Positions 2,916 through 15,425 of a DNA stretch of 29,277 nucleotides are shown here, piece by piece. The notes under the pieces were generated by a model. It had not been told where the DNA came from and ran no database searches. It saw nothing but the letters and a program-made list of their open reading frames with translations. This DNA is from a virus (Duplodnaviria; Heunggongvirae; Uroviricota; Caudoviricetes): the IMG/VR virus record IMGVR_UViG_2660238524_000011; one strand, written 5' to 3'. The position numbers and the translations under genes were made by a program. Each line of letters begins with the position of its first letter. Positions within the stretch are counted from its first letter, which is position 1.

Positions 2916-3012
2916 GATTTAATTCTCCTCTGTTTCCGGCGTGCAGAAGCCCGCGGCGCTGACGTCGGAATAAAAAAGAAAATGTTTTTATTAAATAATT
3001 AACGTGGTGTGT

Positions 3013-3543
3013 TTACTGCACATCCTGCTCAAAAGGAATTATTGAAAAATCCTCAATGTCGCTTTTAATGGAAATACCGGGAATATTTTTCACGGCCTCT
3101 TTTTCATTCAGGATAGCGTCTTTATTTATTTCCTCTTTTACACGAATAAAGCGCTCAAGCCCCAGACGTCTCAGTAATTCAATAACATTATCCGCCCCAC
3201 GGATACTGACTGATGGCGGACGGTTTCGCCACTGCACCTCGCCGGTGGTGAGGTTAGCGAACTTCACCTTCCCGTTGCCGGTCAGTTCATCACGGTGTGC
3301 CTCACACCATGTCTGAATACCGGACTGCAGTTCGGCCATGCGTTTTTTCAGGCTCTCGGTGAGCGGGGCATAACGTGCGGTGATATCGCCAATGGCGTCA
3401 TTCATTTCTGTTTCAGCCCTGACCAGTTCACGTTGTGCGTCACCGAGTAGTCTGATTCCCTCAATGACCTCTTCACGTGTCCCCGGCACCCAGAGTGCTG
3501 CTGCGGCCTTGATACGTTTTGCACCTTTTGTACTTTTTGCCAT
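3013..3543 (-). CDS. gam: Gam-like host-nuclease inhibitor (Mu Gam/Ku-like DNA end-binding protein)
   Basis: 176 aa; N-terminus MAKSTKGAKRIKAAAA and C-terminus GISIKSDIEDFSIIPFEQ closely resemble Mu Gam as I recall it. Confidence 0.8.
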   Translation of the reverse strand: MAKSTKGAKRIKAAAALWVPGTREEVIEGIRLLGDAQRELVRAETEMNDAIGDITARYAPLTESLKKRMAELQSGIQTWCEAHRDELTGNGKVKFANLTTGEVQWRNRPPSVSIRGADNVIELLRRLGLERFIRVKEEINKDAILNEKEAVKNIPGISIKSDIEDFSIIPFEQDVQ

Positions 3544-3570
3544 TTTTTATGATTTCTCCAGTTGTGCTGA

Positions 3571-3840
3571 TTACCACAAAGATTCCGGCCACACGACGCG
3601 ACAGCCGTGCAGTTCGAAAACGCCCTGACGGAAATATCCCCTGTGGTCATGTCCGGTATACAGATAACAGGCCTTTCCCTGCTCAAGCATGCGCATGCAA
3701 TGCGCACTCCGGGAAACGCGGATGACAGGTTTGTTACCCCTGATGGTGATGCTTTGTACATCCGTGTTCGTCGCCTTAAGCGCCATAATGGCTGACTGCA
3801 CTTTGCTGATTTGCTGGTTGATACCTGTGGTGGATTTCAT
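3571..3840 (-). CDS. hypothetical early protein at the position of Mu kil (89 aa)
   Basis: Start lies 2 nt past the B-like stop (TAATAATG context). Function assigned by position only. Confidence 0.35.
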   Translation of the reverse strand: MKSTTGINQQISKVQSAIMALKATNTDVQSITIRGNKPVIRVSRSAHCMRMLEQGKACYLYTGHDHRGYFRQGVFELHGCRVVWPESLW

Positions 3841-3842
3841 TA

Positions 3843-5009
3843 TTAAACCCCTTTGACAACGTCAGCGTTGACCTGTGGAACCCCGATTTCAGCGGCCAGA
3901 TTCATGGCGGCTATTACCAGGTTACTGACGGCCAGCGGATACAGCAGGCTGACCATATTTTTACGGTGACTTCCCGGATTGCTCAGGCGGGCACGTATGG
4001 CATCCACTGCACCGGCGTCCATAATGTCCGTCAGCTGTTTACCGGCCCGTTGCAGTTTGAACGTCAGAAATTCTTCAAGGTTATTGTCCAGAGGCAGAAG
4101 TTCGACCACCTCACAGCGCTGAACGACTTCACGGACTTCCATATTGCGTTCAGACAGTTTTGTCGCCAGTTCCGGCTGGCCAATCAGCACGATGGACAGC
4201 AGTTTTTTGAAACCGGACTCCAGCTCAAAAAAGCGTTTGAGGTGTTTCAGTGTCGGAATGGGCAGACTGTGGGCCTCCTCAATCACCAGAACGTGGCTGA
4301 ACCCCGCCTGGCTGCTGTCTTTCAGGACGCGATGCAACTGGCGAAAACGGGCGTCCTGACTGCGTCTGATGCTTTCCAGTGGTGCGATGGTACTGATAAT
4401 GGCTTCGGCAATAGCTGCTGCCTTCAGGGTTTTCCCTTTCACATCGTTGTCTTCCATAGCGATGATGTATGGCTCGATAACAATTACCGGCGCATTCTCG
4501 CGGTTGATACGTTCAGTCAGGTCGCGGCGCAGCGTGGATTTACCCGCACCGGACTCACCGATGACGGCCATAAACCCACCATGACGGGCTGTCTGGTACA
4601 GCGCCTCACGCACGTAGCGAATGTCCGGGGTGGTGAACACATCATCAGAACCCTGCATGGCTTCGTCGGCGAACGGGTCACGGAAAAGACCAAACGCTTT
4701 TTTGGTTGCTGGAAATAACACCTGTTTTTTGAGTAACATATTCTCTTCCTCACTGAGGCTCGTTTTATCTGTGGTACCCGCTGTACGGGGCGTGGCCGCG
4801 CCCTGTACAGCATCAAAACTCTTCGTTGTATCAATCCCCTGACTTTCCAGCCAGGACGCAAGACGCCGGCGCACTTCTCCGGGGCTGGTGCGGGGCCACG
4901 CGTTATGATTCACAATCTGGGCCAGCGTGGCCTCAGAAACATCGACAGCTCTCGCCACCACCGCCTGTGGAATACGGGCCTCTTTCAGTTGCTGCTTCAG
5001 TACCAGCAT
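3843..5009 (-). CDS. transposition helper ATPase (MuB-like, AAA+ P-loop)
   Basis: Walker A VIGESGAGKST; located immediately downstream of the transposase. GAGGAGG RBS 5 nt upstream of ATG at 5009; the track start at 5048 would overlap the A gene by 29 nt. Confidence 0.7.
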   Translation of the reverse strand: MLVLKQQLKEARIPQAVVARAVDVSEATLAQIVNHNAWPRTSPGEVRRRLASWLESQGIDTTKSFDAVQGAATPRTAGTTDKTSLSEEENMLLKKQVLFPATKKAFGLFRDPFADEAMQGSDDVFTTPDIRYVREALYQTARHGGFMAVIGESGAGKSTLRRDLTERINRENAPVIVIEPYIIAMEDNDVKGKTLKAAAIAEAIISTIAPLESIRRSQDARFRQLHRVLKDSSQAGFSHVLVIEEAHSLPIPTLKHLKRFFELESGFKKLLSIVLIGQPELATKLSERNMEVREVVQRCEVVELLPLDNNLEEFLTFKLQRAGKQLTDIMDAGAVDAIRARLSNPGSHRKNMVSLLYPLAVSNLVIAAMNLAAEIGVPQVNADVVKGV

Positions 5010-5019
5010 GTTTCCCTCC

Positions 5020-6789
5020 TCAGTTGCCGTTAACAATGCTGATAACACTGCTGCGGGCCGGTGTGGTCAGCGTGGCCATGACTTCATCCAGTGCGGCTTC
5101 CGGTACGCCGTCCGGGTACTGTGCCGTTAACTGGCGGTAATGTTCCGGCGTCCAGGTAAGGCCGTCGGCGCTGAACTTATCGCGCAGGGCTTTCGCGGCC
5201 TCCACATGAGTCATGGGACGTTGTTCAGTGCGCGGCCCGCGTACGTCAGAGGCCTGACCACGCTTCGGCATATAGGCCGGAAGTGTGGTGTCGTCGATAT
5301 GTTTATACGGGTCAAGCCGCCCGCCGAACGGCAGCGCCTTCGCCTTGCGTGCGGCGGCTGCATCTGCGGCGTTGTCTGTACCGGTAACCAGCGCTTCGGT
5401 TTCTTTTGCCGCCATCTGTGCCGGGGTTTCCGGCAGGGCTTTGTAACTTTCGCCAAATACCGCCGCGCCTTCAGCAAAGCCAAACTCGTTCTTTCTGACC
5501 TCTTCGACCAGGAAGAACGTCTCGTGGCCGTCCTCACCGGTCAGAACCACCTGTGCCACATCGCTGCGCCATGGGTTACGGGTAATCATCAGTTTTTCAC
5601 CAACCAGTACGCCCGGTACCGTTGATACGTCAAATTCAGTGCCCCGGAACGAGACACGAAGTTTTGGCGTGACTTTGCGGAGTTCTGGTGCCGCCACAGC
5701 CAGTTCACGACATACCTCAACGGAAGGCGCTTTTTTCAGCTGCTCAGCAGTAATCTTCAGCCAGATATCCGTGCGGGTTTTACCGTGGCGGCTGTGAACA
5801 GCCGTGGCGTTAAAGTGGCTGCGCCATTTCGCGGCCAGCGCGTTGAGTTCTTCCAGACTGTGAACCGGCCGGAACTTCAGACCCGGCTCCAGCTTGCGTT
5901 CGATAATGTCACGCGCCTTTTCCACCTGTCCGGTGGCGCGGGCGTTATGCGGCTTGTGCGCTATCAGGTCGATGCCCAGTGAGCGGCACATGTTTTTCGT
6001 CATACCCGCGGTGTTTGCCGAGCCGGGGTCGAGATAGAGTATTTTCGGCACGCCGTGCAGCACGTCTGCGCCGCCACGCTCCTGCATGGCGTTGATAAGC
6101 ACAGAACACAGGTTCTCACCTGATTCCGCGCCCGTCACATACTCAACGTAAATCCAGCCGCTGGCATGGTCGGTAATCTCGTAACTCCACACGCGGTCAC
6201 TGGCGATACGGGCAAGGTTAGCGGGCTTGTTCTTGTAGAACTTCGCGCTGTCCATCACCTGCAGCCCTTTATGTCCATTGCTCAGGTAGTAAAGCGTGCA
6301 GAGTGAGGCGTCAATCTGCCAGACATGATTGGGATGCAGACTGGCCACTTCGGTATGTGGTGCAGGGGCATCCAGTTGTTCCGGGTGCAGGCCATAGTTA
6401 CGCAGAGCACGGCTGATGGCATCTTCAGACAACGGGAAAAACTCACTGGTGGTTTCATCTGTTCTGCCTGCGGTGATAAAGCCGTTAGCCCGCAGGGTTT
6501 CCACTGCATCTGCGATGGAATAGAGACGCTTACCGTTCTTGCGGGTGGCCTCACGCAGTGTGGCAGATATCAGCGCGGCTTCGTCGCGGGTCAGGGCGCT
6601 GCGCCCGGCATCGGCGCGTTTTTTGCGTTTATCAGTCACAGATACCTCCTTCAGCCTGCGCAGCAGAGTGGCGCGGGACATGCCAAGTTCAGCACAGGCA
6701 GCGTCGTATATTGCACCGCGTTTACCATGCCCCGCGTCACGTGCCGCGCGGGCGACATAAACCAGTCGTTCAGTCAGGGCAGCATTCAT
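5020..6789 (-). CDS. DDE transposase (Mu A-like, RNase H-fold integrase core)
   Basis: 589 aa with N-terminal HTH region and candidate DDE residues in HVWQIDAS, LYLDPGSANT and HNARATGQVE. Confidence 0.8.
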   Translation of the reverse strand: MNAALTERLVYVARAARDAGHGKRGAIYDAACAELGMSRATLLRRLKEVSVTDKRKKRADAGRSALTRDEAALISATLREATRKNGKRLYSIADAVETLRANGFITAGRTDETTSEFFPLSEDAISRALRNYGLHPEQLDAPAPHTEVASLHPNHVWQIDASLCTLYYLSNGHKGLQVMDSAKFYKNKPANLARIASDRVWSYEITDHASGWIYVEYVTGAESGENLCSVLINAMQERGGADVLHGVPKILYLDPGSANTAGMTKNMCRSLGIDLIAHKPHNARATGQVEKARDIIERKLEPGLKFRPVHSLEELNALAAKWRSHFNATAVHSRHGKTRTDIWLKITAEQLKKAPSVEVCRELAVAAPELRKVTPKLRVSFRGTEFDVSTVPGVLVGEKLMITRNPWRSDVAQVVLTGEDGHETFFLVEEVRKNEFGFAEGAAVFGESYKALPETPAQMAAKETEALVTGTDNAADAAAARKAKALPFGGRLDPYKHIDDTTLPAYMPKRGQASDVRGPRTEQRPMTHVEAAKALRDKFSADGLTWTPEHYRQLTAQYPDGVPEAALDEVMATLTTPARSSVISIVNGN

Positions 6790-6792
6790 TGG

Positions 6793-7707
6793 TTATGCCT
6801 CCAGCCCGTTAATCTGTGGCGTCGGCTCAGTCAGCCATGAAGGCGCTGCATTGCCTGTTGGCTCGTCCGGCAGGTCAAATGTGGAGCGCAGGCTACGCGC
6901 TGTGCTTTCCAGTTGACAGACCAGGCCTGCCATGAAGTCTCTGGGGGTATCAATCATGTTTTCAGCACAATATGCGCACAGCGTCTCAAAAGCGCTGGAC
7001 AGTCGGACGGCGATAGCAGATTCCGCCTCAACCGCTAATGCTGTTACTTCCGCCCGCAGCTTCTTAACCTCCTCATCAGGCTCAGGCGGCTGAATACGGG
7101 ATTTCTTCTCCAGTCTGGTGGAGAGTGAATCTATTTTTTCATTTTTGTCGGCGAGTACGCGCTGTTGTGCTGCGTTGGTTTCGCGCGCTTCGCGCAGGGC
7201 CTGACGCAATTCACGTACTGACATGCGATCAACGTCGTCAAGCGTCAGGCCGGCAACTGTGCCGCCGTCGGCCAATTCATCAAGTTCTTCATTATCCAGA
7301 ACCATCAGGTCGTACAGTTTGGCTTTCCCCAAAACGCTCAACGTTGAGCGTTTTGTTGGCTCATCACCTTCTCCCAAAAACTTCATACTGGCTTGCATCA
7401 TGCGGCGAGCAACTTGTGGTGCAAGTCCGAGTTCATTTTCTAAAATGTTTGTAAAATCACCGTGTGGCTCATTTTCTTTTAAGATGATCAGCCGCTTACC
7501 CGCTTCCAGCATAGATTCAGCACTCTGCGCCATATAAAAACGTGCTTCGTGAACAATGCGATCACGTTCATAAGGCAGTCCATCACCAAACTGCTGCATA
7601 ATTTCCATGCGATGCTGTGTCATAGCGTTCAAATTGACATTGATGTTATCTGACAGCGGAACCTCAACATTCAGTTCAGTGTTAACGGGTGATTTGGTGC
7701 GTCCCAT
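6793..7707 (-). CDS. conserved Mu-like early protein (304 aa, coiled-coil; copy 1)
   Basis: Immediately upstream of the A gene; paralog at 11101..12021 (about 85% identity by eye). Acidic and coiled-coil rich. Confidence 0.55.
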   Translation of the reverse strand: MGRTKSPVNTELNVEVPLSDNINVNLNAMTQHRMEIMQQFGDGLPYERDRIVHEARFYMAQSAESMLEAGKRLIILKENEPHGDFTNILENELGLAPQVARRMMQASMKFLGEGDEPTKRSTLSVLGKAKLYDLMVLDNEELDELADGGTVAGLTLDDVDRMSVRELRQALREARETNAAQQRVLADKNEKIDSLSTRLEKKSRIQPPEPDEEVKKLRAEVTALAVEAESAIAVRLSSAFETLCAYCAENMIDTPRDFMAGLVCQLESTARSLRSTFDLPDEPTGNAAPSWLTEPTPQINGLEA

Positions 7708-8078: not shown

Positions 8079-8267
8079 TTATGCCGCATTTGACGTGGGT
8101 TTTAATCCCAGTTTTACGGCAATTTCATGGGCTTTGCCGTAACGAGCTTTGGTCTGTCCATTGAGAACACGATAGACCTCATTGCGGCTGTAGCCGTGTT
8201 CTTCGGCCCAGCGGGTAAACGTGATACCACGCTGACGGAAGAGATTTTTAACTTGTTCGGAAGTCAT
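8079..8267 (-). CDS. Ner-like small DNA-binding regulator (first gene of early operon, copy 1)
   Basis: 62 aa with HTH segment GITFTRWAEEHGYSRNEVYRVLNG. Divergent from the repressor gene and first gene of the leftward operon. Confidence 0.55.
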   Translation of the reverse strand: MTSEQVKNLFRQRGITFTRWAEEHGYSRNEVYRVLNGQTKARYGKAHEIAVKLGLKPTSNAA

Positions 8268-8353
8268 TGTTGTCTCCTTTGTTGATGCAATGATGTTTGT
8301 TTTATATGTGATAGATTATGAGAACTATTGTTCTCATTGTCAATGAGGTTTAT
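8268..8353. promoter_or_regulatory. divergent promoter/operator region 1, with palindrome ATGAGAAC-N4-GTTCTCAT at 8318-8337
   Basis: Perfect 8-bp inverted repeat with 4-bp spacer read directly from the sequence, between divergent Ner-like and repressor genes. TTGATG at 8282-8287 is a possible -35 element. Confidence 0.5.
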
Positions 8354-8779
8354 GTGAATTTTGATTCTCTTTGCGCGTCGCGGTTCAAAGCTGAGCGTTC
8401 GCGGTTATCACTCAAGCAGGCTGAAGTAGCAGCCCTTTGTGGCGTTTCAAGAGAAATGTGGGGGAAATATGAACGAGGGGTTGCTGTTCCCGGAGGTGAG
8501 TTACTTGCAGCCTTTGCAAGAATTGGGGCCAATGTACAGTTCATTCTTACCGGGGAGTCATCAGGTATAACTTTATCACGTGATGAAATGGAGTTACTGC
8601 AGCACTACCGGCAGGCACCATTACAGGTCAAAGGTTCAGTTTTGTCGGCCTTGACTACTGGCTCCTCCAGAGAACGGGCGGAACAGGTTATTCATGGAGA
8701 TGTTCTGGGGAATGTTATCAAAGGTAACGTAACCATAGGAACAGGTGGAATAATGAACAAAAATACCAAGAGAAGATGA
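8318..8779 (+). CDS. XRE/Cro-CI-type HTH repressor (immunity repressor 1)
   Basis: HTH LSLKQAEVAALCGVSREMWGKYERG. The track ATG at 8318 lies inside the operator palindrome and lacks an RBS; in-frame GTG at 8354 preceded by GAGG is an alternative start. Stop overlaps the next start (ATGA). Confidence 0.65.
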   Translation: MRTIVLIVNEVYVNFDSLCASRFKAERSRLSLKQAEVAALCGVSREMWGKYERGVAVPGGELLAAFARIGANVQFILTGESSGITLSRDEMELLQHYRQAPLQVKGSVLSALTTGSSRERAEQVIHGDVLGNVIKGNVTIGTGGIMNKNTKRR

Positions 8780-9762
8780 GTAAAGAGAAGCAAACAGTTA
8801 ACGGGGATGTGGGTAACGTTGTCAGCGGTGATGTTACCATTCATAACTATTCTGCTGACATACTTCCTTCGGCCCAGCAACCAATTTCGTTGCTGCAAAA
8901 ACGCGATTTACACAGATTGATGGATGAATTGGTTGATCTGGGGGAAAGTAAGCGCGAGCTATGGATGACGATCCACACGAAACTTAATACCAAAACAGTT
9001 AATGAAATGACTGCGGCTGATTATCATGGTGCGGTTGAGATCCTTCAGAGATATGCACAACAGATCCAGAATATGAAGGACTGTAATCTTCTGGTCAGCA
9101 AAATAATGGCGCTTACTGACCCTGGGTATCGTCTTGACCGTGACAGATACTGTCTGAAGCATTTCGGTACAACCCATCTTAAAGGCCTAGACAAAGAGCA
9201 GTTGCAGGCTGTGTTTGGTTATTTTGATGATCTGCTGAATATTCGTGATGAGAGTAAAACTCTATCACCTCCATCGGAAAGCGGTGCAAAATCAGTCGCA
9301 ACTGTACCAACCAGAAGCCGGAAGCCTCATGTAGTAGTGTTGGGGGGAGTGTTAGTTCTTGTAGCAATATTTTTCGTGGGAATGATTGTGTTCGCTGGTA
9401 AATGGGGAAATGCCAAAGCAGTAGCTTCTACTGAAACCAGCGTTTTTAACATTAAAACCAACGATAAAATAATAGAAGATTCCATCCCCGCACTGCGCAG
9501 CATGTTTCCAGGGTTAAATAAGTACTCAGATGATTTCCATTCGGTTTCAAGCTACAAGCAAAAAACGGGCTGGCATACCCTTAAATTTACTGTATCAGCA
9601 AAGGCATCCGTCCCCGAAAATTATAGTGTTAAGGGCAAGGTTTGTTACATTAACATAAGCCCTGATGGTAGTTATGCTCGGGTTTTGACTGCTCCATGTC
9701 GTTCACTGCTACTTGATCAGCAAAGCACTCCTGACAGTAAATACCGTTTTATTCTTAAATAG
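8776..9762 (+). CDS. membrane-anchored protein of unknown function (328 aa)
   Basis: Single hydrophobic segment VVVLGGVLVLVAIFFVGMIVFAG between a roughly 165-aa N-terminal domain and a roughly 120-aa C-terminal domain. Visibly AT-rich relative to neighbours. Confidence 0.55.
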   Translation: MSKEKQTVNGDVGNVVSGDVTIHNYSADILPSAQQPISLLQKRDLHRLMDELVDLGESKRELWMTIHTKLNTKTVNEMTAADYHGAVEILQRYAQQIQNMKDCNLLVSKIMALTDPGYRLDRDRYCLKHFGTTHLKGLDKEQLQAVFGYFDDLLNIRDESKTLSPPSESGAKSVATVPTRSRKPHVVVLGGVLVLVAIFFVGMIVFAGKWGNAKAVASTETSVFNIKTNDKIIEDSIPALRSMFPGLNKYSDDFHSVSSYKQKTGWHTLKFTVSAKASVPENYSVKGKVCYINISPDGSYARVLTAPCRSLLLDQQSTPDSKYRFILK

Positions 9763-9843: not shown

Positions 9844-10434
9844 GTGATGAACATGGCAGGGATTCAGGTTATCGCAGGAAGTTTTCCTAAAGGGTGGGCA
9901 AGCATGGGGTTCGGTACCATCGTGTTTGCCAAAAAACCAAAACAAGGCTTTCCTGAAAATATTGTATTAAATCTGAAAGAAGAGCTTTTATCGATTGAAC
10001 TTGCGGATAGTGAAGAGGAAAGCCGTATAGGTAAGGCGGCAGGCGCAGGTTTGCTTGGTGGATTAATCTTTGGTGGTGCAGGGTTGGTCATTGGAGGTTT
10101 GCTTGGTGCGGCGGACAAGACGAAAAAAACTATCACTTTTAAGGCAATGTTTACGGGAAATAGGTTACTTCTGGCTAAAACAGATTCAAAAACTTTTGTA
10201 AAACTTCAGTCAATTGCTGCTGATAATGCCCATAACGCATCTGTAATCAACATGAAGCAAACTAACAGGGGCGATGTTTCTTCTCGTAAACAACTAACAG
10301 AAAATCCACAGCAGCAAGACTTACCTGCGCCCGCTACAACAGTAAAAATGACTGCCAAAGATAAGTTAGAATCGGCTCTTGGGCTGGGAATCATCGTTAT
10401 AGCTGTTTGGGCAATAATACACTTCTTTTTTTAG
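9844..10434 (+). CDS. glycine-zipper membrane protein of unknown function
   Basis: Gly-rich segment GAGLLGGLIFGGAGLVIGGLLGAA and C-terminal hydrophobic helix. Likely start is the ATG at 9853, preceded by AAGG. Confidence 0.5.
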   Translation: MMNMAGIQVIAGSFPKGWASMGFGTIVFAKKPKQGFPENIVLNLKEELLSIELADSEEESRIGKAAGAGLLGGLIFGGAGLVIGGLLGAADKTKKTITFKAMFTGNRLLLAKTDSKTFVKLQSIAADNAHNASVINMKQTNRGDVSSRKQLTENPQQQDLPAPATTVKMTAKDKLESALGLGIIVIAVWAIIHFFF

Positions 10435-10471: not shown

Positions 10472-10768
10472 TTAAGGATTATCCGGGGCGTTTTCCTGTT
10501 TGCCGTACTTCGGAGACGAACAACATTCTGTTGGCTGACCGGTGAGTTTACGTAACTCCTTCATGAGCAGCTCCTGATCGTAAACTGTCATCAGTGCCGC
10601 AATGGTGGCATGCAGTGCATCGGGCAGTATCCAGGGACGCAGCAGAGTGGCGCGGGACATGCCAAGTTCAGCACAGGCAGCGTCGTATATTGCACCGCGT
10701 TTACCATGCCCCGCGTCACGTGCCGCGCGGGCTGTTTCAACCAGTTTTTCAGTCAGTGCCGGGGTCAT
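10472..10768 (-). pseudogene. chimeric in-frame fusion: transposase N-terminus (44 aa) joined to an internal fragment of the P-loop gene
   Basis: 10638-10732 is identical to 6659-6753 (A gene 5' region). 10493-10636 matches 14970-15113 with 3 mismatches in 144 bp. Product is MTPALTEKL...SRATLL followed by RPWILPDALHATIAALM. Confidence 0.55.
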
Positions 10769-10783
10769 AGCTTGTCTTCCCTG

Positions 10784-11101
10784 TTATCCGATTCTGGCGG
10801 CAATTTTTCTGGCGAGGTCGCACAGTGTTTCGCCATCGCAGGTTTTCACCACGGTATTTACCGGTTGCGGTGCAACTACCGGGCGTAATGCTGACTGATT
10901 CTGCAGACGTCTTATCTGCTGCATCAGCATCACCTCCATCGTCAGTACAAACGGGTGCGTCTCCTGTGCGGGTACGCAGATTTCACCGGAAGGGGTCACC
11001 ACGCGGAAACCCTGCACCATCTCCGGCAGCAGATTACACAGTGCGTGCCCCAGTGCCTCCGGGCTGTCCATCAGGGTATTTTGTGTGTTATTCGTATTCA
11101 T
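10784..11101 (-). CDS. hypothetical protein (105 aa), present only in control module 2
   Basis: Start abuts the stop of 11101..12021. No counterpart between the 304-aa gene and A in copy 1. Confidence 0.35.
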   Translation of the reverse strand: MNTNNTQNTLMDSPEALGHALCNLLPEMVQGFRVVTPSGEICVPAQETHPFVLTMEVMLMQQIRRLQNQSALRPVVAPQPVNTVVKTCDGETLCDLARKIAARIG

Positions 11102-12021
11102 TACTGCATATCCTCCGGTCGGTTGATTTCAGGTTCCGGTTCGGTCAGCCAGGCGGGGGCATCGTTACCCGATGGAGCGGCCTCAAGGTCAAACGTCTCA
11201 CGTAATGCATGAACACTGCGTTCAATCTGGCAGACCAGACCGGCCATGAAATCTCTGGGGGTATCGATCATGTTTTTGGTGCAGTATTCACACAGGGTCT
11301 CAAAAACACTGGACAGCCGGACGGCGATAGCCGATTCGGCCTCAACCGCTAATGCCGTCACTTCCGCCCGCAATTTTTTCAGTTCTTCGTCTGGCGGCGG
11401 AGGTTGCAGGCGCGATTTCTTCTCCAGTTTTGTGGCCAGTTCGTTGATTTTTTCGTCCTTTCCGGCAAGCACCTGTTGCTGAGCTGCGTTGGTTTCGCGC
11501 GCTTCACGCAGGGCGGCCTTCAGTTCGCGGCTGGTCATGCGATCAATATCATCAAGCGTTGCACCGGCGACGGTTCCACCATCAGCTAATGCGTCGAGTT
11601 CTTCGTCATCCAGAACCATCAGTTCATATAACTTGGTTTTTCCCAAAACGCTCAGCGCTGAGCGTTTTGGCTGTTCATCTCCATTGCCGAGAAATTTCAC
11701 GCTGGCCTGCATCATGCGACGAGCTACCTGTGGTGCTAATCCGAGGTCGTTTTCCAGAATATTTGTGAAATCACCATGCGGTTCATTTTCTTTTAAGATG
11801 ATCAGCCGCTTACCCGCTTCCAACATAGATTCAGCACTCTGCGCCATATAAAAACGTGCTTCGTGAACGATGCGTTCACGTTCATAAGGCAGTCCATCAC
11901 CAAACTGCTGCATGATCTCCATGCGATGCTGTGTCATGGCATTCAGGCTGACGTTGAGATCATCCGACAGCGGTACATCGGCGTTCAGTTCAGTGTTAAT
12001 CGGTGATTTGGTACGTCCCAT
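11101..12021 (-). CDS. conserved Mu-like early protein (306 aa; copy 2)
   Basis: Paralog of 6793..7707. Confidence 0.55.
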   Translation of the reverse strand: MGRTKSPINTELNADVPLSDDLNVSLNAMTQHRMEIMQQFGDGLPYERERIVHEARFYMAQSAESMLEAGKRLIILKENEPHGDFTNILENDLGLAPQVARRMMQASVKFLGNGDEQPKRSALSVLGKTKLYELMVLDDEELDALADGGTVAGATLDDIDRMTSRELKAALREARETNAAQQQVLAGKDEKINELATKLEKKSRLQPPPPDEELKKLRAEVTALAVEAESAIAVRLSSVFETLCEYCTKNMIDTPRDFMAGLVCQIERSVHALRETFDLEAAPSGNDAPAWLTEPEPEINRPEDMQ

Positions 12022-12031
12022 TGATTACTCC

Positions 12032-12340
12032 TTACAAACGACTACCTGAAATGACACGTTGGTTAATTTCGTTAATACGATCCTGTGCACGTGCCATCTC
12101 GTTACTGTGGGCCATGGCGATCTGCAGTAACTGGATGCCCGGTGCAAAACGTCCGTTCTCCAGTTTCAGAGCCAGCCCTTCTTCAATGAGGGTGTTGAGT
12201 GCCCGGTTGATGTTTGCCGGTGACTCGTGCAGTGCTGTCGCCAGTTCACCGTTAGAAATACCGTTCAGGGCATGACCGCGCAGCGCTTTGAGTACCCGGA
12301 GGATGCGACTGCCGGAGCTTGAAACATTCGTCTTACTCAT
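12032..12340 (-). CDS. winged-helix HTH DNA-binding protein (copy 2)
   Basis: Paralog of 7718..8026. Start at the ATG at 12340 (MSK...) with AGAGG RBS 7 nt upstream. Confidence 0.5.
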   Translation of the reverse strand: MSKTNVSSSGSRILRVLKALRGHALNGISNGELATALHESPANINRALNTLIEEGLALKLENGRFAPGIQLLQIAMAHSNEMARAQDRINEINQRVISGSRL

Positions 12341-12392
12341 CTGCATACCTCTTTTGCGATATGTGATAACCTTTTACAAAGACTCAAAATAT

Positions 12393-12581
12393 TTAGGCCG
12401 CCTGAGCTGTTGATTTCAGTCCCAACTTCACGGCGATTTCATGGGATTTACCGTAACGGGCTTTGGTCTGCCCGTTGAGAACGCGGTATACCTCATTGCG
12501 GTTGTAGCCGTTTTCTTCTGCCCAGCGGGTGAAAGTGATCCCGCGCTGGCGGAAGAGAGCTTTGACTTGTTCTGCAGTCAT
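12393..12581 (-). CDS. Ner-like small DNA-binding regulator (copy 2)
   Basis: 62 aa, about 87% identical to 8079..8267. Confidence 0.55.
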   Translation of the reverse strand: MTAEQVKALFRQRGITFTRWAEENGYNRNEVYRVLNGQTKARYGKSHEIAVKLGLKSTAQAA

Positions 12582-12674
12582 CGTTGTCTCCTTTGTTGAT
12601 GCAATGATGTTTGCCTTATATGTGTTAGATTATTGCTCATAATTATGAGCATATCAAGATAGAGATTCACTTTT
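12582..12674. promoter_or_regulatory. divergent promoter/operator region 2, with 18-bp palindrome TGCTCATAATTATGAGCA at 12634-12651
   Basis: Perfect palindrome read from the sequence; a third half-site TATGAGCA overlaps the repressor 2 start codon at 12674-12681. Confidence 0.5.
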
Positions 12675-13031
12675 ATGAGCAAAGATATAGGAGAGCGCGT
12701 TATTTCTGTGAGGAAGAAAGCAGGGTTGAACCAGAGAGAATTTGCAGCTCGTTTAGGTATTTCTAATGGTGGTATCAGTCAGATTGAAAATGGAAAGGCG
12801 ATGCCTGGAGGGGAGTTTCTGTTAAAGATGCATCAAGAGTTTAATGTTGATGTAAATTGGTTGCTCACTGGAATGAGCACAGATGGTATGACTAGAAACC
12901 AGAATCAAATTTCCCCAGAAAAACAAAAACTAATAGATACTTTTGACGACATGACACCAGACCAACAACGCTCATTTCTTGAGATTGGGCGATTCTATAC
13001 TCAGCCAAAACCAGGAAAAATCGCAGGCTGA
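12675..13031 (+). CDS. XRE-type HTH repressor (immunity repressor 2)
   Basis: HTH LNQREFAARLGISNGGISQIENG. Unrelated to repressor 1 outside the HTH core. Confidence 0.65.
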   Translation: MSKDIGERVISVRKKAGLNQREFAARLGISNGGISQIENGKAMPGGEFLLKMHQEFNVDVNWLLTGMSTDGMTRNQNQISPEKQKLIDTFDDMTPDQQRSFLEIGRFYTQPKPGKIAG

Positions 13032-13116: not shown

Positions 13117-13148
13117 ACCGGAAAGCATTGTGCTTTCCGGTTTTGTTT
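13117..13148 (+). terminator. putative intrinsic terminator
   Basis: 10-bp stem ACCGGAAAGC/GCTTTCCGGT with 5-nt loop, followed by TTTTGTTT. Downstream of repressor 2 and abutting the Dam stop codon. Confidence 0.55.
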
Positions 13149-13910
13149 CAGAAGTTGCAGATTAGCAGTTCACGGCGCGGCGTGGGTTTACCCGCCAGAC
13201 TGTAGTTGATATTCACTGTCTGTATGTTCAGTCCAGTGAACACCTCGCGCATCTGCGGGATGTCGTTCACCGAAATTATCATTTTTCCTCTGATGCACCG
13301 GGCCAGCTCTGCCAGCCGCGAGTAGTTCCCTTCAGGAAAATCCACACCATAGCCTTCCGTACCCAGGTACGGTGGGTCGCAGTAGAACAGCGTGTGCGGA
13401 CGATCATAACGCTCAATGCACTGTTGCCAGTCCATGTGTTCTATGACTGTTCTGGAAAGCCGCAGGTGTGCCGCTGACAGTTCTTCTTCAATACGTAGCA
13501 GGTTGAAGCGTGGCGGGGATGTGGTGGAGGTACCGAAGCTGTGCTCTGCCACCTTGCCGCCAAACGCCTGCTTCTGAAGGTAGTAGAACCGTGCCGCACG
13601 CTGGATATCCGTCAGTGTTTCTTCCGGGGTGATCTGCAGCCATTTGTAGATCTGACGGCTGACCAGCGCCCATTTGAACTGGCGGACAAATTCTTCCAGG
13701 TGATGCTTTACCACCCGGTACAGATTCACCAGTTCACCGTTGATATCATTGATGACTTCGATCTTGCCGGGTGTCTTAAGAAAATAGAGCGCTGCTGCCC
13801 CACAAAACGGCTCCACATAACATTCATGCGCCGGAAACAGCGGCAGAATGTGTTTTGCAAGGCGGCGTTTGCCACCAATCCACGGCACGATGGGTAATGT
13901 CTGCATTTTC
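13148..13910 (-). CDS. dam: DNA adenine methyltransferase (Dam-like, D12-class N6-MTase)
   Basis: DPPY catalytic motif (FYCDPPYLG) and N-terminal SAM-binding region (IVPWIGGKRR ... VEPFCGAAA). Track ORF trimmed to the ATG at 13910 (MKMQTLPIVPW). Confidence 0.75.
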
Positions 13911-14102
13911 ATAATCTGCAAGCCTTTTACAATTATTAAAAAATATGGCAGTCTGGTCAGGTCTCGCGAGACTGACTGAACCTTGGTCGGCTCACAGCGC
14001 ATTCCTGTGGGGCGATGACCAGCCCGGCTTTCGGGTGCCGGGCTGGTCGTTCTTTCATGATGCGGCAGGGATGGCGGGATTTCTGTTAATGTGGTTTAGG
14101 GA

Positions 14103-14318: not shown

Positions 14319-14721
14319 GATGCACTCCTTAAATGATGATTTTTATGTACTCACCGGCAAAATATTCTGCCGATTACTGAACACGCATCCGGCACCTCAG
14401 GTTTTGATTTATTCTGGTTTTTTCGATATCCCGGACCAGGTTGATCACGACCAGAAAAAGTGCCGGTGTTTTATTGATACGCTGATATGGCTTCGGGATA
14501 ACAGCTATATTCGTTACTCTCAGTTGCTGGCTGTGGGAGCGGCTGATGTCGTCCTCACGGAAAAAACGCTCTGTCTGCTCAATGCCATGCCGACCTTTCT
14601 GCAGCCCCGGCCCGTACCATTTAAAGAGTCACTTCTGGATGCAGTAAAAACCGGTGAAAATGCAGTCATCGCTGAATGCGTATCCCGGATTATGCGTTAC
14701 GTGTTTAATGAACGTAAGTGA
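14317..14721 (+). CDS. hypothetical protein (134 aa)
   Basis: ORF fills the 378-nt gap between minus-strand genes. Its start codon overlaps the divergent start of 14103..14318 (CATGATG); 3' end converges on and overlaps the P-loop gene. Weak GGGGA RBS. Confidence 0.35.
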   Translation: MMHSLNDDFYVLTGKIFCRLLNTHPAPQVLIYSGFFDIPDQVDHDQKKCRCFIDTLIWLRDNSYIRYSQLLAVGAADVVLTEKTLCLLNAMPTFLQPRPVPFKESLLDAVKTGENAVIAECVSRIMRYVFNERK

Positions 14722-15425
14722 GGTTTATCCGCTGTCTGCATAATCCCGATAGCCAGTGCGAGGGGAAGTAATTCCGGGGAAACTCTTTCAAACAGCGATG
14801 CCCATTCTCCTCTCGCCATCACTCTGTCCAGCCCGCCCTCCAGTTGCATTTCAGCAATCTTCCTGATTTCCCGGAACAACGCCGCTTTGATCTCTTCATG
14901 CTCAGCTTTATTTTCCGGTGTCAGAAGGTATTCGTCGAAGAACCGGGGAGGCTGGTTAATCGGGATGTGTTCCTGTTTGCCGTACTTCGGGGACGAACAA
15001 CATTCTGTTGACTGACCAGTGAGTTTACGTAACTCCTTCATGAGCAGCTCCTGATCGTAAACTGTCATCAGTGCCGCAATGGTGGCATGCAGTGCATCGG
15101 GCAGTATCCAGGGTTGCCGGCCCGTGGGGCATATAACATCCAGCAGCTCATTCGTCCGACAGATACGCTCCTCGCCGTATGACAACAGGCCCTGTCCCGT
15201 GTATTCCTCCAGCCTGATCACTGTGCCAGCCCGTGGTTTCTGCCATGTGCTCAGATCATCCCCACTCATACGGCGCTCACCGTCCACGTCTGCGGCGTCG
15301 ACAATGACGCTGTTTCCGAATTCCTGTTTCACCACTTCCTCTATTCGCGCCAGTACGTAACTTTTACCGCTGCCCACAGGACCGGACACGGTGACAGTGA
15401 TGACCGGATTCAGTGTCTGCGTCAT
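14697..15425 (-). CDS. P-loop NTPase-like protein of unknown function (242 aa)
   Basis: N-terminal Walker A-like SGPVGSGKSY. GAGGAG RBS 8 nt upstream of ATG at 15425. Confidence 0.5.
   Translation of the reverse strand: MTQTLNPVITVTVSGPVGSGKSYVLARIEEVVKQEFGNSVIVDAADVDGERRMSGDDLSTWQKPRAGTVIRLEEYTGQGLLSYGEERICRTNELLDVICPTGRQPWILPDALHATIAALMTVYDQELLMKELRKLTGQSTECCSSPKYGKQEHIPINQPPRFFDEYLLTPENKAEHEEIKAALFREIRKIAEMQLEGGLDRVMARGEWASLFERVSPELLPLALAIGIMQTADKPHLRSLNT

Follow-up and report, generated by a model that had tools for sequence, protein, structure and literature searches.

A matched terminal peptide on a prophage repressor and on the membrane protein encoded immediately downstream of it

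The stretch of viral DNA analyzed here, called the window below (29,277 nt; Caudoviricetes, IMG/VR record IMGVR_UViG_2660238524_000011), raises the question of why the C-terminus of a prophage repressor should resemble the N-terminus of the product of the next, overlapping gene. The original prediction, made from the sequence of the window, described an imperfect direct repeat at this point and offered three explanations for it: a duplication scar, a shared interaction peptide, or the footprint of a past gene fusion or split. The features of the locus are collected in Table 1. Repressor 1 qualifies as an XRE-family HTH phage repressor, since its HTH lies above the Pfam threshold (HTH_31, 30.5 bits against a cut-off of 27) and it is located at the lysogeny switch, where it is divergent from the Ner-like gene and transposase genes adjoin it; in a P2-like phage the equivalent gene sits at the position of the C repressor. 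Most of its homologs in a broad alignment (A1) start at MNFDSL. An AlphaFold2 model places the HTH at amino acids 1–66, two helices at 76–101 and a disordered tail at 102–141, and the motif within this tail (in which GGAGATGTT lies at bp 8696) has pLDDT values of 38–54. The tail motif is kept in homologs with three different HTH N-terminal domains (A1), and in nearly all tail-bearing homologs a cluster of lysine and arginine residues follows it. The repressor 1 stop codon and the start codon of the next gene, whose product is called the partner below, overlap in an ATGA, which implies translational coupling; the same −1 overlap is found at seven other loci (L002, L017, L027, L052, L077, L078, and L119).

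Table 1. Features of the repressor locus in the window
Feature	Coordinates	Strand	Basis or remark
Ner/Cro-like DNA-binding gene, divergent from repressor 1	8079..8267	-	Marks lysogeny switch of Mu-like prophage
Repressor 1, prophage XRE-type HTH	8354..8779	+	GTG start at 8354 gives MNFDSL...; PGAP start is ATG at 8318
Repressor C-terminal motif EQVIHGDVLGNVIKGNVTIGTGG, three G-[DN]-V triplets	8681..8749	+	Protein comparison, homologs
Basic end of repressor 1, IMNKNTKRR	8750..8776	+	Alignment A1 and tails of other loci
ATGA overlap, repressor 1 stop / partner start	8776..8779	+	Read from sequence
Partner gene, 328 aa	8776..9762	+	phrog_10002; NCBIfam Flk NF007987; AlphaFold2 model; hydropathy
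Partner N-terminal motif KQTVNGDVGNVVSGDVTIHNY	8788..8850	+	Homolog alignment, codon changes, pLDDT
Flk-like helical domain, aa 30-160	8863..9255	+	pLDDT >90; NCBIfam Flk match
Transmembrane helix, aa 186-204	9331..9387	+	Kyte-Doolittle score 3.05; helix 191-205 in AlphaFold2 model
C-terminal alpha/beta domain, aa 225-328	9448..9759	+	AlphaFold2 model, relatives compared
Third gene of repressor operon, 196-aa glycine-rich membrane protein	9844..10434	+	phrog_12025; without motif
Repressor 2	12675-13031		Tail absent

The resemblance is real at the protein level. The repressor tail EQVIHGDVLGNVIKGNVTIG aligns with the N-terminal segment KQTVNGDVGNVVSGDVTI of the next protein over 20 columns with 11 identities, and the BLOSUM62 local score of 55 was reached by none of 1000 whole-protein shuffles (29.6 ± 4.5); with only the 40-residue ends compared, the same 55 stands against 19.6 ± 4.2 for shuffled sequences (z = 8.5) and 28 for the reversed partner. 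When all six frames of the whole window were scanned, each motif was the best non-self match of the other (score 54; next 34), and no third copy was found. The part of the prediction that spoke of a repeat in the DNA fared less well, as the proposed alignment of the two DNA segments gives a score of 23 against 15.0 ± 2.3, a value that 4 of 500 shuffles reach, and a nucleotide identity of ∼60%; the DNA similarity is thus only marginal, whereas that of the proteins is far beyond chance. Repressor 1 also does not end at GTGG as first described, but continues for nine further residues, the basic end of Table 1. The partner begins MSKEKQTVNGDVGNVVSGDVTIHNY, in which the Y codon ends at bp 8850.

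The low DNA similarity bears on the origin of the two segments. A functionless remnant of a local duplication or gene conversion, from the end of one gene to the start of the next, could account for two copies that lie ∼100 nt apart in the same orientation and for the marginal DNA score, but 101 of 174 identical residues (58%) are specified by different codons and nucleotide identity is 46–65%. Both segments are, moreover, under purifying selection at the protein level: the repressor 1 motif differs from its Serratia counterpart by 12 synonymous and three nonsynonymous codon changes, the partner motif differs from those of orthologs by 11 and five and by six and zero, respectively, and the latter is nearly invariant in 21 homologs whose overall identity is 44–82%. 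The pairing also persists from the Enterobacterales to the Neisseriales and Burkholderiales, i.e. across Gamma- and Betaproteobacteria, and on unrelated partner scaffolds. A neutral remnant is therefore very improbable, and the codon evidence speaks against gene conversion as well as against the duplication scar of the original prediction. Nor do the data bear the marks of a gene fusion or split, as the reading frames of the two ORFs differ, the homolog searches brought up no protein joining an HTH to a Flk-like domain, and no slippery heptamer of the form X XXY YYZ was seen at the overlap. The GDV/GNV periodicity of the motif recalls the repeats of bactofilin-like or left-handed β-helix domains. 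Such a repeat domain was considered and rejected; there is a single ∼18-residue unit and no Pfam match, so the motif cannot be a folded solenoid by itself.

The similarity was followed into other prophages. Loci were collected with another repressor alignment (A3), the broad alignment having no sufficiently conserved stretch, and the ORFs for within-locus comparison were chosen by an objective rule; the set comprises ∼47 non-redundant Mu-like and P2-like prophage loci from genomes and IMG/VR, and the pair is present in both kinds of phage. The C-terminal motif of a repressor fits its own downstream N-terminus much better than it fits the N-termini of other loci. For 30 non-redundant genome loci the sum over true pairs is 934 against 591 ± 36 for permuted pairings (none of 20,000 permutations reaches 934), for the 47 genome and IMG/VR loci it is 1461 against 909 ± 46 (z = 12), and for the G/N/Q-rich pairs only (n = 8) it is 390 against 235 ± 32 (three of 50,000 permutations reach 390). 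At least ten versions of the motif occur, for example GNRVAGRDY and FNGxxxGQFxxxxIIN, and the pairs (tail and partner N-terminus) include FNGDISGQFAGNQIINNG and FNGTAQGQFSSRDIINIH, SGKGNRVAGRDFNENK and TGGQNRVAGRDFNENK, GHRFALGDYHE and EHRIALGDYYE, HGGQFSTGTINNY and HGGQFGQVINNY, and NSGMGAIQIG and NSGSGAVQMG. In 18 loci the aligned motifs span 11–22 columns, and matched adjacent pairs are spaced from −20 to +38 nt. In several seeming exceptions the partner is encoded after one intervening gene, and five loci (L028, L143, L020, L047, and L058) carry a motif-like tail with a weak or absent partner match. Repressor relatives that have no tail also have no partner; repressor 2 of the window, correctly predicted to be without the tail (sequence and A1), is one of these, and no co-directional gene lies downstream of it. 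The compositional bias of both segments might invite the thought that two glycine-, asparagine- and valine-rich low-complexity ends resemble each other by chance, but the scores of the shuffled and reversed partner given above, together with within-locus matching at z ≈ 12 over the loci, leave that explanation with next to no credence. The original prediction would have counted as refuted if the tail proved to be a conserved intrinsic part of the repressor family, and this is literally true of a subfamily; yet it does not make the finding an ordinary one, because conservation extends to the tail and its matching partner jointly.

The matching has its limits. Within RVAGRDY, the largest class, covariation between tail and partner is weak (p ≈ 0.017, n = 19; p ≈ 0.08 when only the n = 10 stricter pairs are counted). 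Hence it is classes that match, and no residue-by-residue co-evolution is claimed. Several old duplications followed by conservation could produce such between-class matching. Among 5426 complete E. coli genomes, 127 carry the module. Two motif classes that differ greatly occur in the prophages of E. coli, and each class finds its match inside its own locus.

The partner consists of the N-terminal motif, a Flk-like helical cytoplasmic domain, one transmembrane helix and a C-terminal α/β domain. The NCBIfam Flk model NF007987 matches only its amino acids 19–147 (E = 2.9e-12), and the 46.6 bits obtained do not reach the curated cut-off of 353, so the protein does not qualify as a Flk equivalog. 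QRxxLHxL...W..H...G...EhT motifs of this domain are common to partners at other loci, and by its sequence and predicted model the partner belongs to a Flk-like domain superfamily with a helical cytoplasmic domain and a membrane anchor. The residues RSRKPH just before the transmembrane helix indicate that the N-terminus should be cytoplasmic, and the α/β domain is presumably periplasmic; the latter is missing from tail-anchored relatives of ∼190–215 amino acids and stands alone in other proteins. Precomputed annotation lists PF27202 for the protein cluster of the partner, for which the literature search found no description. Pfam, PADLOC, and PDB fold searches with the partner gave nothing significant, the weak fold resemblances being to three-helix bundles such as the Red-β C-terminal domain (E > 1), and these searches thus offer no clue to what the partner does. 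Amino acids 1–28 have pLDDT values below 50, and both motifs are thus predicted to be disordered in the monomers, beside confidently folded domains. Over the matched loci the scaffolds that bear the motif are unrelated: most are Flk-like tail-anchored proteins, and others are zinc-ribbon proteins with a transmembrane segment or small proteins with two. A clear transmembrane segment is present in 35 of 45 matched partners, and among the other ten, at least two (L003 and L014) end in a short hydrophobic stretch that falls just short in a 19-residue hydropathy scan. Such a motif begins nearly all prophage-type Flk-like proteins, and chromosomal Flk lacks it.

The shared interaction peptide is thus the one of the three original explanations that is favored, on the strength of within-locus matching over many versions, purifying selection, and predicted disorder in both proteins. 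We put at roughly 60% the probability that this peptide is homotypic and co-evolving and serves to couple the repressor to a partner anchored in the membrane. The two segments would form a pair of matching interaction peptides, terminal, intrinsically disordered and rich in G/N/Q/V/I. Through them the tail of the repressor would associate directly, like with like, with the cytoplasmic N-terminal end of the membrane protein that is translated along with it. A shared β-strand or cross-β stacking seems the most plausible geometry, because it needs the two sequences to be alike; against it, the many charged residues of the RVAGRDY class would be out of the ordinary in an in-register stack. Such an association would tie the prophage repressor pool to a membrane-anchored protein, here a Flk-like one with an extra outer domain, which would probably tether, co-assemble with or inactivate the repressor, and the outcome would be modulated maintenance of, or exit from, lysogeny in phages that have no RecA-cleavable repressor. 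With coupled, and presumably near-equimolar, expression, simple constitutive sequestration of the repressor is hard to reconcile with stable lysogeny, which calls for an interaction that is conditional or only partial. That the pairing occurs in many temperate phages suggests a direct, possibly amyloid-like, link of the lysogeny switch to the cell membrane.

A more specific and doubtful form of this is an amyloid- or prion-like relay with a transcription factor as its output, which would switch the prophage. The membrane partner would nucleate a cross-β fold through its N-terminal motif and template the matching repressor tail, and the repressor would then be pulled off its operators, leading to induction or to a heritable change of immunity state; diversification of the motif into orthogonal classes would let co-resident prophages avoid cross-talk.

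The same physical pairing might instead have its output at the membrane. The partner would then act as an effector of toxicity or exclusion (resembling Rex, a holin or a toxin) and be silenced or triggered by the tail, and the pair would be an addiction, abortive-infection or superinfection-exclusion module comparable to a type II antitoxin and toxin or to an amyloid-triggered executioner. Type II antitoxins typically have the HTH gene first, coupled genes and a disordered C-terminal tail, all of which are seen or predicted here, and the repressor 1 HTH gives weak matches to the MqsA, HipB, and PezA antitoxin models. The lysogenic operon expresses the partners, which are small membrane proteins, and in Bab/Agp and HET-S a motif pair controls a membrane-targeting death domain. 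On the other hand, no toxin family in Pfam, NCBIfam or PADLOC and no PADLOC defense model matched the downstream gene, no NACHT, NB-ARC, Bell or defense model matched repressor 1 or the partner, and the Flk-like domain is more like a tail-anchored regulator than a pore former. Amyloid signaling pairs, moreover, carry the C-terminal motif on the effector, and here it is on the DNA-binding protein; the partner is also frameshifted in phage 520873, whose record was submitted as the complete genome of a phage. We consider a membrane output of this kind unlikely.

Lastly, the two peptides might make no mutual contact and be recognized by a common third reader, such as a protease or adaptor that reads them as degrons in the way ClpXP acts on the C-terminus of the Mu repressor, another phage protein, DNA or the membrane, which would co-regulate the turnover or localization of both proteins. 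Degrons are typically terminal disordered peptides, the basic cluster after the repressor motif would suit such a reader, and the weak within-class covariation fits a shared conserved one. Against it, the single host species noted above has unrelated motif classes, each matched within its locus, the window holds no third copy of the motif, and a host reader needs no likeness between the two sequences in at least ten versions. A host factor as the target is by the same sequence comparison unlikely, because one host carries unlike classes matched per locus, which a conserved factor would not need. Recognition by a third reader is thus an improbable account of the pairing.

If the favored reading is correct and the peptides do pair, at least two temperate lineages (Mu-like and P2-like) wire their master repressor to a membrane protein by a portable, diversifying like-with-like peptide. 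This would provide a testable handle on the control of repressors that lack a RecA-cleavable domain, a new context for amyloid-type signaling motifs (on a regulator that binds DNA, in place of a death effector), and a set of naturally orthogonal association tags of ∼20 residues. Should the output be exclusion or addiction rather than induction, the pair would still be a prophage-encoded module that is undescribed in the literature searched. If the amyloid relay were true, amyloid signaling would extend from the control of cell death to gene regulation, and an induction pathway would be at hand for Mu-like and P2-like phages that are not SOS-inducible. A literature search that did not cover all journals returned no prior description of a repressor with an amyloid or other such motif, or of the gene downstream of Mu-like repressors, and the amyloid-type motif pattern on a phage repressor and a membrane protein was not found as a context in that literature.

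The closest parallel is with the gene pairs that carry amyloid signaling motifs, bacterial BASS1–11, including Bab/Agp, which functions in E. coli, and fungal HET-S/NWD2 (bioRxiv 10.1101/2020.01.06.895854; bioRxiv 10.1101/2024.11.07.622273). These were sought as adjacent collinear genes with similarity of at least 15 aligned residues between the C-terminus of one product and the N-terminus of the other, and overlaps between the genes are frequent. The pair in the window exceeds this length, its genes are collinear and overlap in the ATGA (a few partners at other loci are one gene on), and the within-pair matching over motif families stands out against permutation at z ≈ 10–12, with the weak covariation in the largest class noted above. 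As in the amyloid signaling pairs, the motif is ∼15–25 amino acids long, combines G/N/Q with hydrophobic residues, joins a C-terminus to the N-terminus from the adjacent collinear gene, is portable between domain contexts and occurs in many families, each matched within the pair; and, like Bab/Agp, the example here sits in E. coli, in a prophage. The carriers differ, however, being an XRE-HTH DNA-binding repressor and a constitutively membrane-anchored Flk-like or small membrane protein in place of a Bell, HeLo or Bab effector and an NLR/STAND or TPR sensor, and domains and motifs stand in the opposite polarity to each other. Highly charged classes (RVAGRDY) occur here, and the papers whose text was searched make no mention of HTH proteins or repressors.

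Flk (RflH or “Fluke”) is a tail-anchored regulator of flagellar type III secretion in Salmonella and E. coli, and the relatives of the partner are likewise cytoplasmic helical proteins with a C-terminal transmembrane anchor. Unlike Flk, the partner is prophage-encoded and has an N-terminal motif that chromosomal Flk-type proteins lack, and that of the window has an additional domain of ∼105 amino acids after the transmembrane helix. In type II toxin–antitoxin systems with XRE-HTH antitoxins (HigA, MqsA, and HipB type), the upstream HTH protein autoregulates and its disordered tail contacts the product of the coupled downstream gene, but there toxin and antitoxin are not known to share a sequence motif. 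Membrane-anchored anti-sigma factors (RseA or ZAS type) and the aggregation-type antirepressor RstC of the CTX/RS1 phages capture or aggregate transcription regulators, and some partners here have the zinc-ribbon and transmembrane layout of the former; those systems are not known to use a shared peptide for recognition, and no homology to them was detected. The c repressor of phage Mu is of another DNA-binding family and is not known to have a matching downstream partner. Its C-terminal tail modulates ClpXP degradation and DNA binding, and a C-terminal tail with a regulatory role, putative in repressor 1, is common to both repressors, each of them from a phage that is transposable and not inducible by SOS.

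The XRE-type prophage repressor 1 and the membrane protein of the next ORF (the partner) carry GDV-GNV-type peptides at the C- and N-terminus, respectively. The peptides quoted in the original prediction are correct, except that repressor 1 does not end in ...GTGG; nine further residues (IMNKNTKRR) follow. The protein alignment of the two (EQVIHGDVLGNVIKGNVTI / KQTVNGDV-GNVVSGDVTI) has a BLOSUM62 score of 55, which was reached by none of 1000 shuffles of the whole proteins (29.6±4.5; 19.6±4.2 and z=8.5 with the shuffled 40-residue end as background), whereas reversing the partner gives only 28. When the window was scanned in all six frames, each motif proved to be the other's best non-self match (54; next 34), and chance resemblance can practically be discounted. 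The suggestion that the underlying DNA is also similar holds only marginally (∼60% identity; 4 of 500 shuffles score at least as high), and it is the protein-level similarity that stands; by these comparisons the two ends share a common peptide, not a DNA repeat.

The window is E. coli chromosome with Mu-like (transposable) prophage DNA, and the 1.5-kb stretch around the motif pair is present in 127 of 5426 complete E. coli genomes (at ≥99% identity in 98). In strain IAI39 a Ner-like gene and MuA/MuB-type transposition genes lie on one flank and late genes on the other. The third protein of the repressor operon has a TM segment at its C-terminus and a stretch resembling a glycine zipper; it lacks the shared motif and has no family assignment beyond its phrog. 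The second early region contains repressor 2, a Ner-like gene, an HTH gene, a DUF3102 gene and a truncated transposase 5′ end; its junction looks like a recombination or deletion between two related prophages.

Features of the repressor loci, with modeled segments of the partner protein
Feature	Position	Strand	Remarks
Ner-like gene	8079-8267	-	divergent from repressor 1
Repressor 1	8354 (GTG)-8779	+	XRE-type HTH, Pfam HTH_31; start as MNFDSL of most homologues (PGAP: ATG at 8318)
Partner ORF	8776-9762	+	328 aa; start overlaps repressor 1 stop (ATGA)
Partner, N-terminus	aa 1-28		disordered, pLDDT <50 (AlphaFold2)
Partner, helical domain	aa 30-160		confident (AlphaFold2)
Partner, TM helix	∼aa 186-205		AlphaFold2
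Partner, alpha/beta domain	aa 225-328 (9448-9759)		confident (AlphaFold2)
Third gene of repressor operon	9844-10434	+	196-aa membrane protein, phrog_12025
Second early region	10472-13031		Mu-like, partial
Repeat	10479-10653 / 14956-15130		
Repeat	10638-10773 / 6659-6794		
Junction	near 10638-10653		second early region joins 91% copy of part of gene 14697-15425
Repressor 2	12675-13031		
Gene after repressor 2	13148-14002		strand opposite to repressor 2; DNA methyltransferase-like by eye from translation

The same tail is found throughout a repressor subfamily, including members with a quite different HTH domain; other homologues have different G/N/Q-rich tails (for example, QVFHGNVSGQFAGNQIVNNG... 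and ...VSGNGNRVAGRDYNEKK), and still others have none. Repressor 2, as originally noted, lacks a tail, and it also lacks a co-directional downstream gene, which fits a rule that tail and partner occur together. Loci encoding repressor relatives (66 from genomes and 80 from IMG/VR) were compared by a single fixed rule, in which the next co-directional ORF is taken as the partner and the last 40 residues of the repressor are aligned with the first 40 of this neighbour. In locus after locus the tail matches its own neighbour's N-terminus, and the version of the motif differs between loci (tail/partner: FNGDISGQFAGNQIINNG/FNGTAQGQFSSRDIINIH; SGKGNRVAGRDFNENK/TGGQNRVAGRDFNENK; GHRFALGDYHE/EHRIALGDYYE; FNGNIDGQVSAENIYNIG/FNHTVGQVAANNIYNIY; HGGQFSTGTINNY/HGGQFGQVINNY; NSGMGAIQIGSIG/NSGSGAVQMGNVAG). 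When pairings were shuffled among non-redundant loci, the true pairing scored 934 for 30 genome loci (permuted 591±36) and 1461 for 47 genome plus IMG/VR loci (909±46, z=12), each reached by 0 of 20000 permutations; the eight G/N/Q-rich pairs alone gave 390 (235±32; reached by 3 of 50000). In RVAGRDY, the largest of the classes, tails show only a weak excess of matching to their own partners (p≈0.02-0.08), and the matching signal in these alignments is one between classes.

Independent divergence after a single ancestral duplication would give no preference for the own partner, so the pairs appear to have been kept alike locus by locus. The idea of a duplication scar is also contradicted by the codons, which differ at 7 of 11 identical residues in the window pair and at 101 of 174 in 18 loci, where nucleotide identity of the aligned motifs is 46-65%. 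Synonymous/non-synonymous codon changes between orthologous loci (12/3 and 17/5 in the tail, 11/5 and 6/0 in the partner N-terminus) indicate that both segments are under purifying selection, and the partner's first 25 residues are near-invariant although overall identity among the homologues is only 44-82%. A neutral scar without function is therefore very improbable, and the comparisons lend no support to the footprint of a gene fusion or split.

Residues 19-147 of the window partner match the NCBIfam model for Flk, a tail-anchored flagellar secretion regulator (E 2.9e-12, with a score far under the equivalog cut-off). Most other partners have 190-215 aa and combine this helical domain with the motif and an anchor at the C-terminus. 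The Flk-like family is small: 1.84 billion representatives searched with a profile yielded only 112 clusters. Nearly all prophage-type members open with such a motif, one of them with two tandem copies, and chromosomal Flk-type proteins lack it. Some loci have unrelated partners, which are either zinc-ribbon proteins of 117-139 aa that contain TM segments or small proteins with two TM segments. The window partner's alpha/beta domain also occurs alone or differently fused in other proteins (e.g., P0098, P0102 and P0108), and Klebsiella phage KP12 and Escherichia phage Phi06_2974 B have it as well. Some partners, among them P0121 from the representative library and that of locus L005, have the motif twice in tandem (NRTAGRNYYEV...NNVAGRDVIHV), which recalls the two-repeat HET-s prion domain. 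The P2-like Escherichia phage 520873 (NC_049344; L148, 2040-3485, in an unannotated repressor-integrase region) carries the module at the equivalent position, the repressor ending ...NISGGNNRIAGRDYNETKGR and the next gene beginning MAVNSNGSNNRVAGRDFHEKNI; this Flk-like gene is frameshifted with its N-terminal motif intact, and is either a pseudogene or carries a sequencing error. The tail and its matching membrane partner thus form a portable unit, which is found with different DNA-binding domains on the repressor side, on different scaffolds on the partner side, and in more than one phage lineage.

In L053, L046 and L101 (probably also in L018 and L034) one gene separates the repressor from its downstream partner, and in L079 the partner has a later start codon; matches are weak in L047 and L058, and the tails of L028, L143 and L020 have no convincing partner. 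L101 (IMG/VR, 3001-4500) has two tandem HTH genes, both with RIAGRDY-type tails, and then one partner starting MAVNSNGSNNRVAGRDFHEKNI. Lonsdalea and Pseudomonas prophages (L009-L013, L021-L025, L112, L118, L125, L127) are built differently and show no end-to-end match: a helical ...VLKLVVNR segment closes the repressor homologue, and the neighbouring Flk-like protein opens with a helix and has a motif of the IKIKGxxGNINLGTQ type in its interior.

The two peptides are alike rather than complementary, are matched per locus, and lie at C- and N-termini across coupled genes; each is modeled as disordered by itself (in repressor 1 after the HTH and two helices, pLDDT 38-54). These features point to direct like-with-like association, and the proposal of a shared interaction peptide gains support from its matching within loci over many motif versions. 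Geometries that demand likeness are shared or stacked beta-strands, arranged either as cross-beta or so that one peptide mimics a subunit of a symmetric oligomer, and translational coupling would let both ends emerge close in time and space, favouring assembly. Recognition of both peptides by a third party is rather improbable, since class-by-class matching would be unnecessary for a conserved host reader (e.g., a protease), and E. coli prophages carry two or more unrelated motif classes, each matched to its locus. With the same physical pairing the membrane protein could instead be an effector (exclusion, addiction or abortive infection), which the antitoxin-like gene layout fits, but the partner matches no toxin or defence family and we consider this unlikely. 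We favour, with a probability of about 0.6, a partner that physically links the repressor with the membrane, thereby modulating the lysogeny switch; these repressors have no RecA-cleavable domain.

The motif pair is confirmed; it is more widespread and of greater interest than the original prediction supposed, and our literature searches found no paper describing repressor-associated motif pairs. Bacterial amyloid signalling motifs were sought in adjacent collinear genes, frequently overlapping, as C- versus N-terminal similarities of at least 15 residues, and one such pair, Bab/Agp, is functional in an E. coli prophage defence island (bioRxiv 10.1101/2020.01.06.895854; 10.1101/2024.11.07.622273). 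The genomic pattern of repressor and partner is the same as this discovery criterion, but amyloid signalling pairs have different carrier domains, which repressor and partner do not share. By analogy, repressor and partner may work like a matched pair of the amyloid signalling type in a new context.
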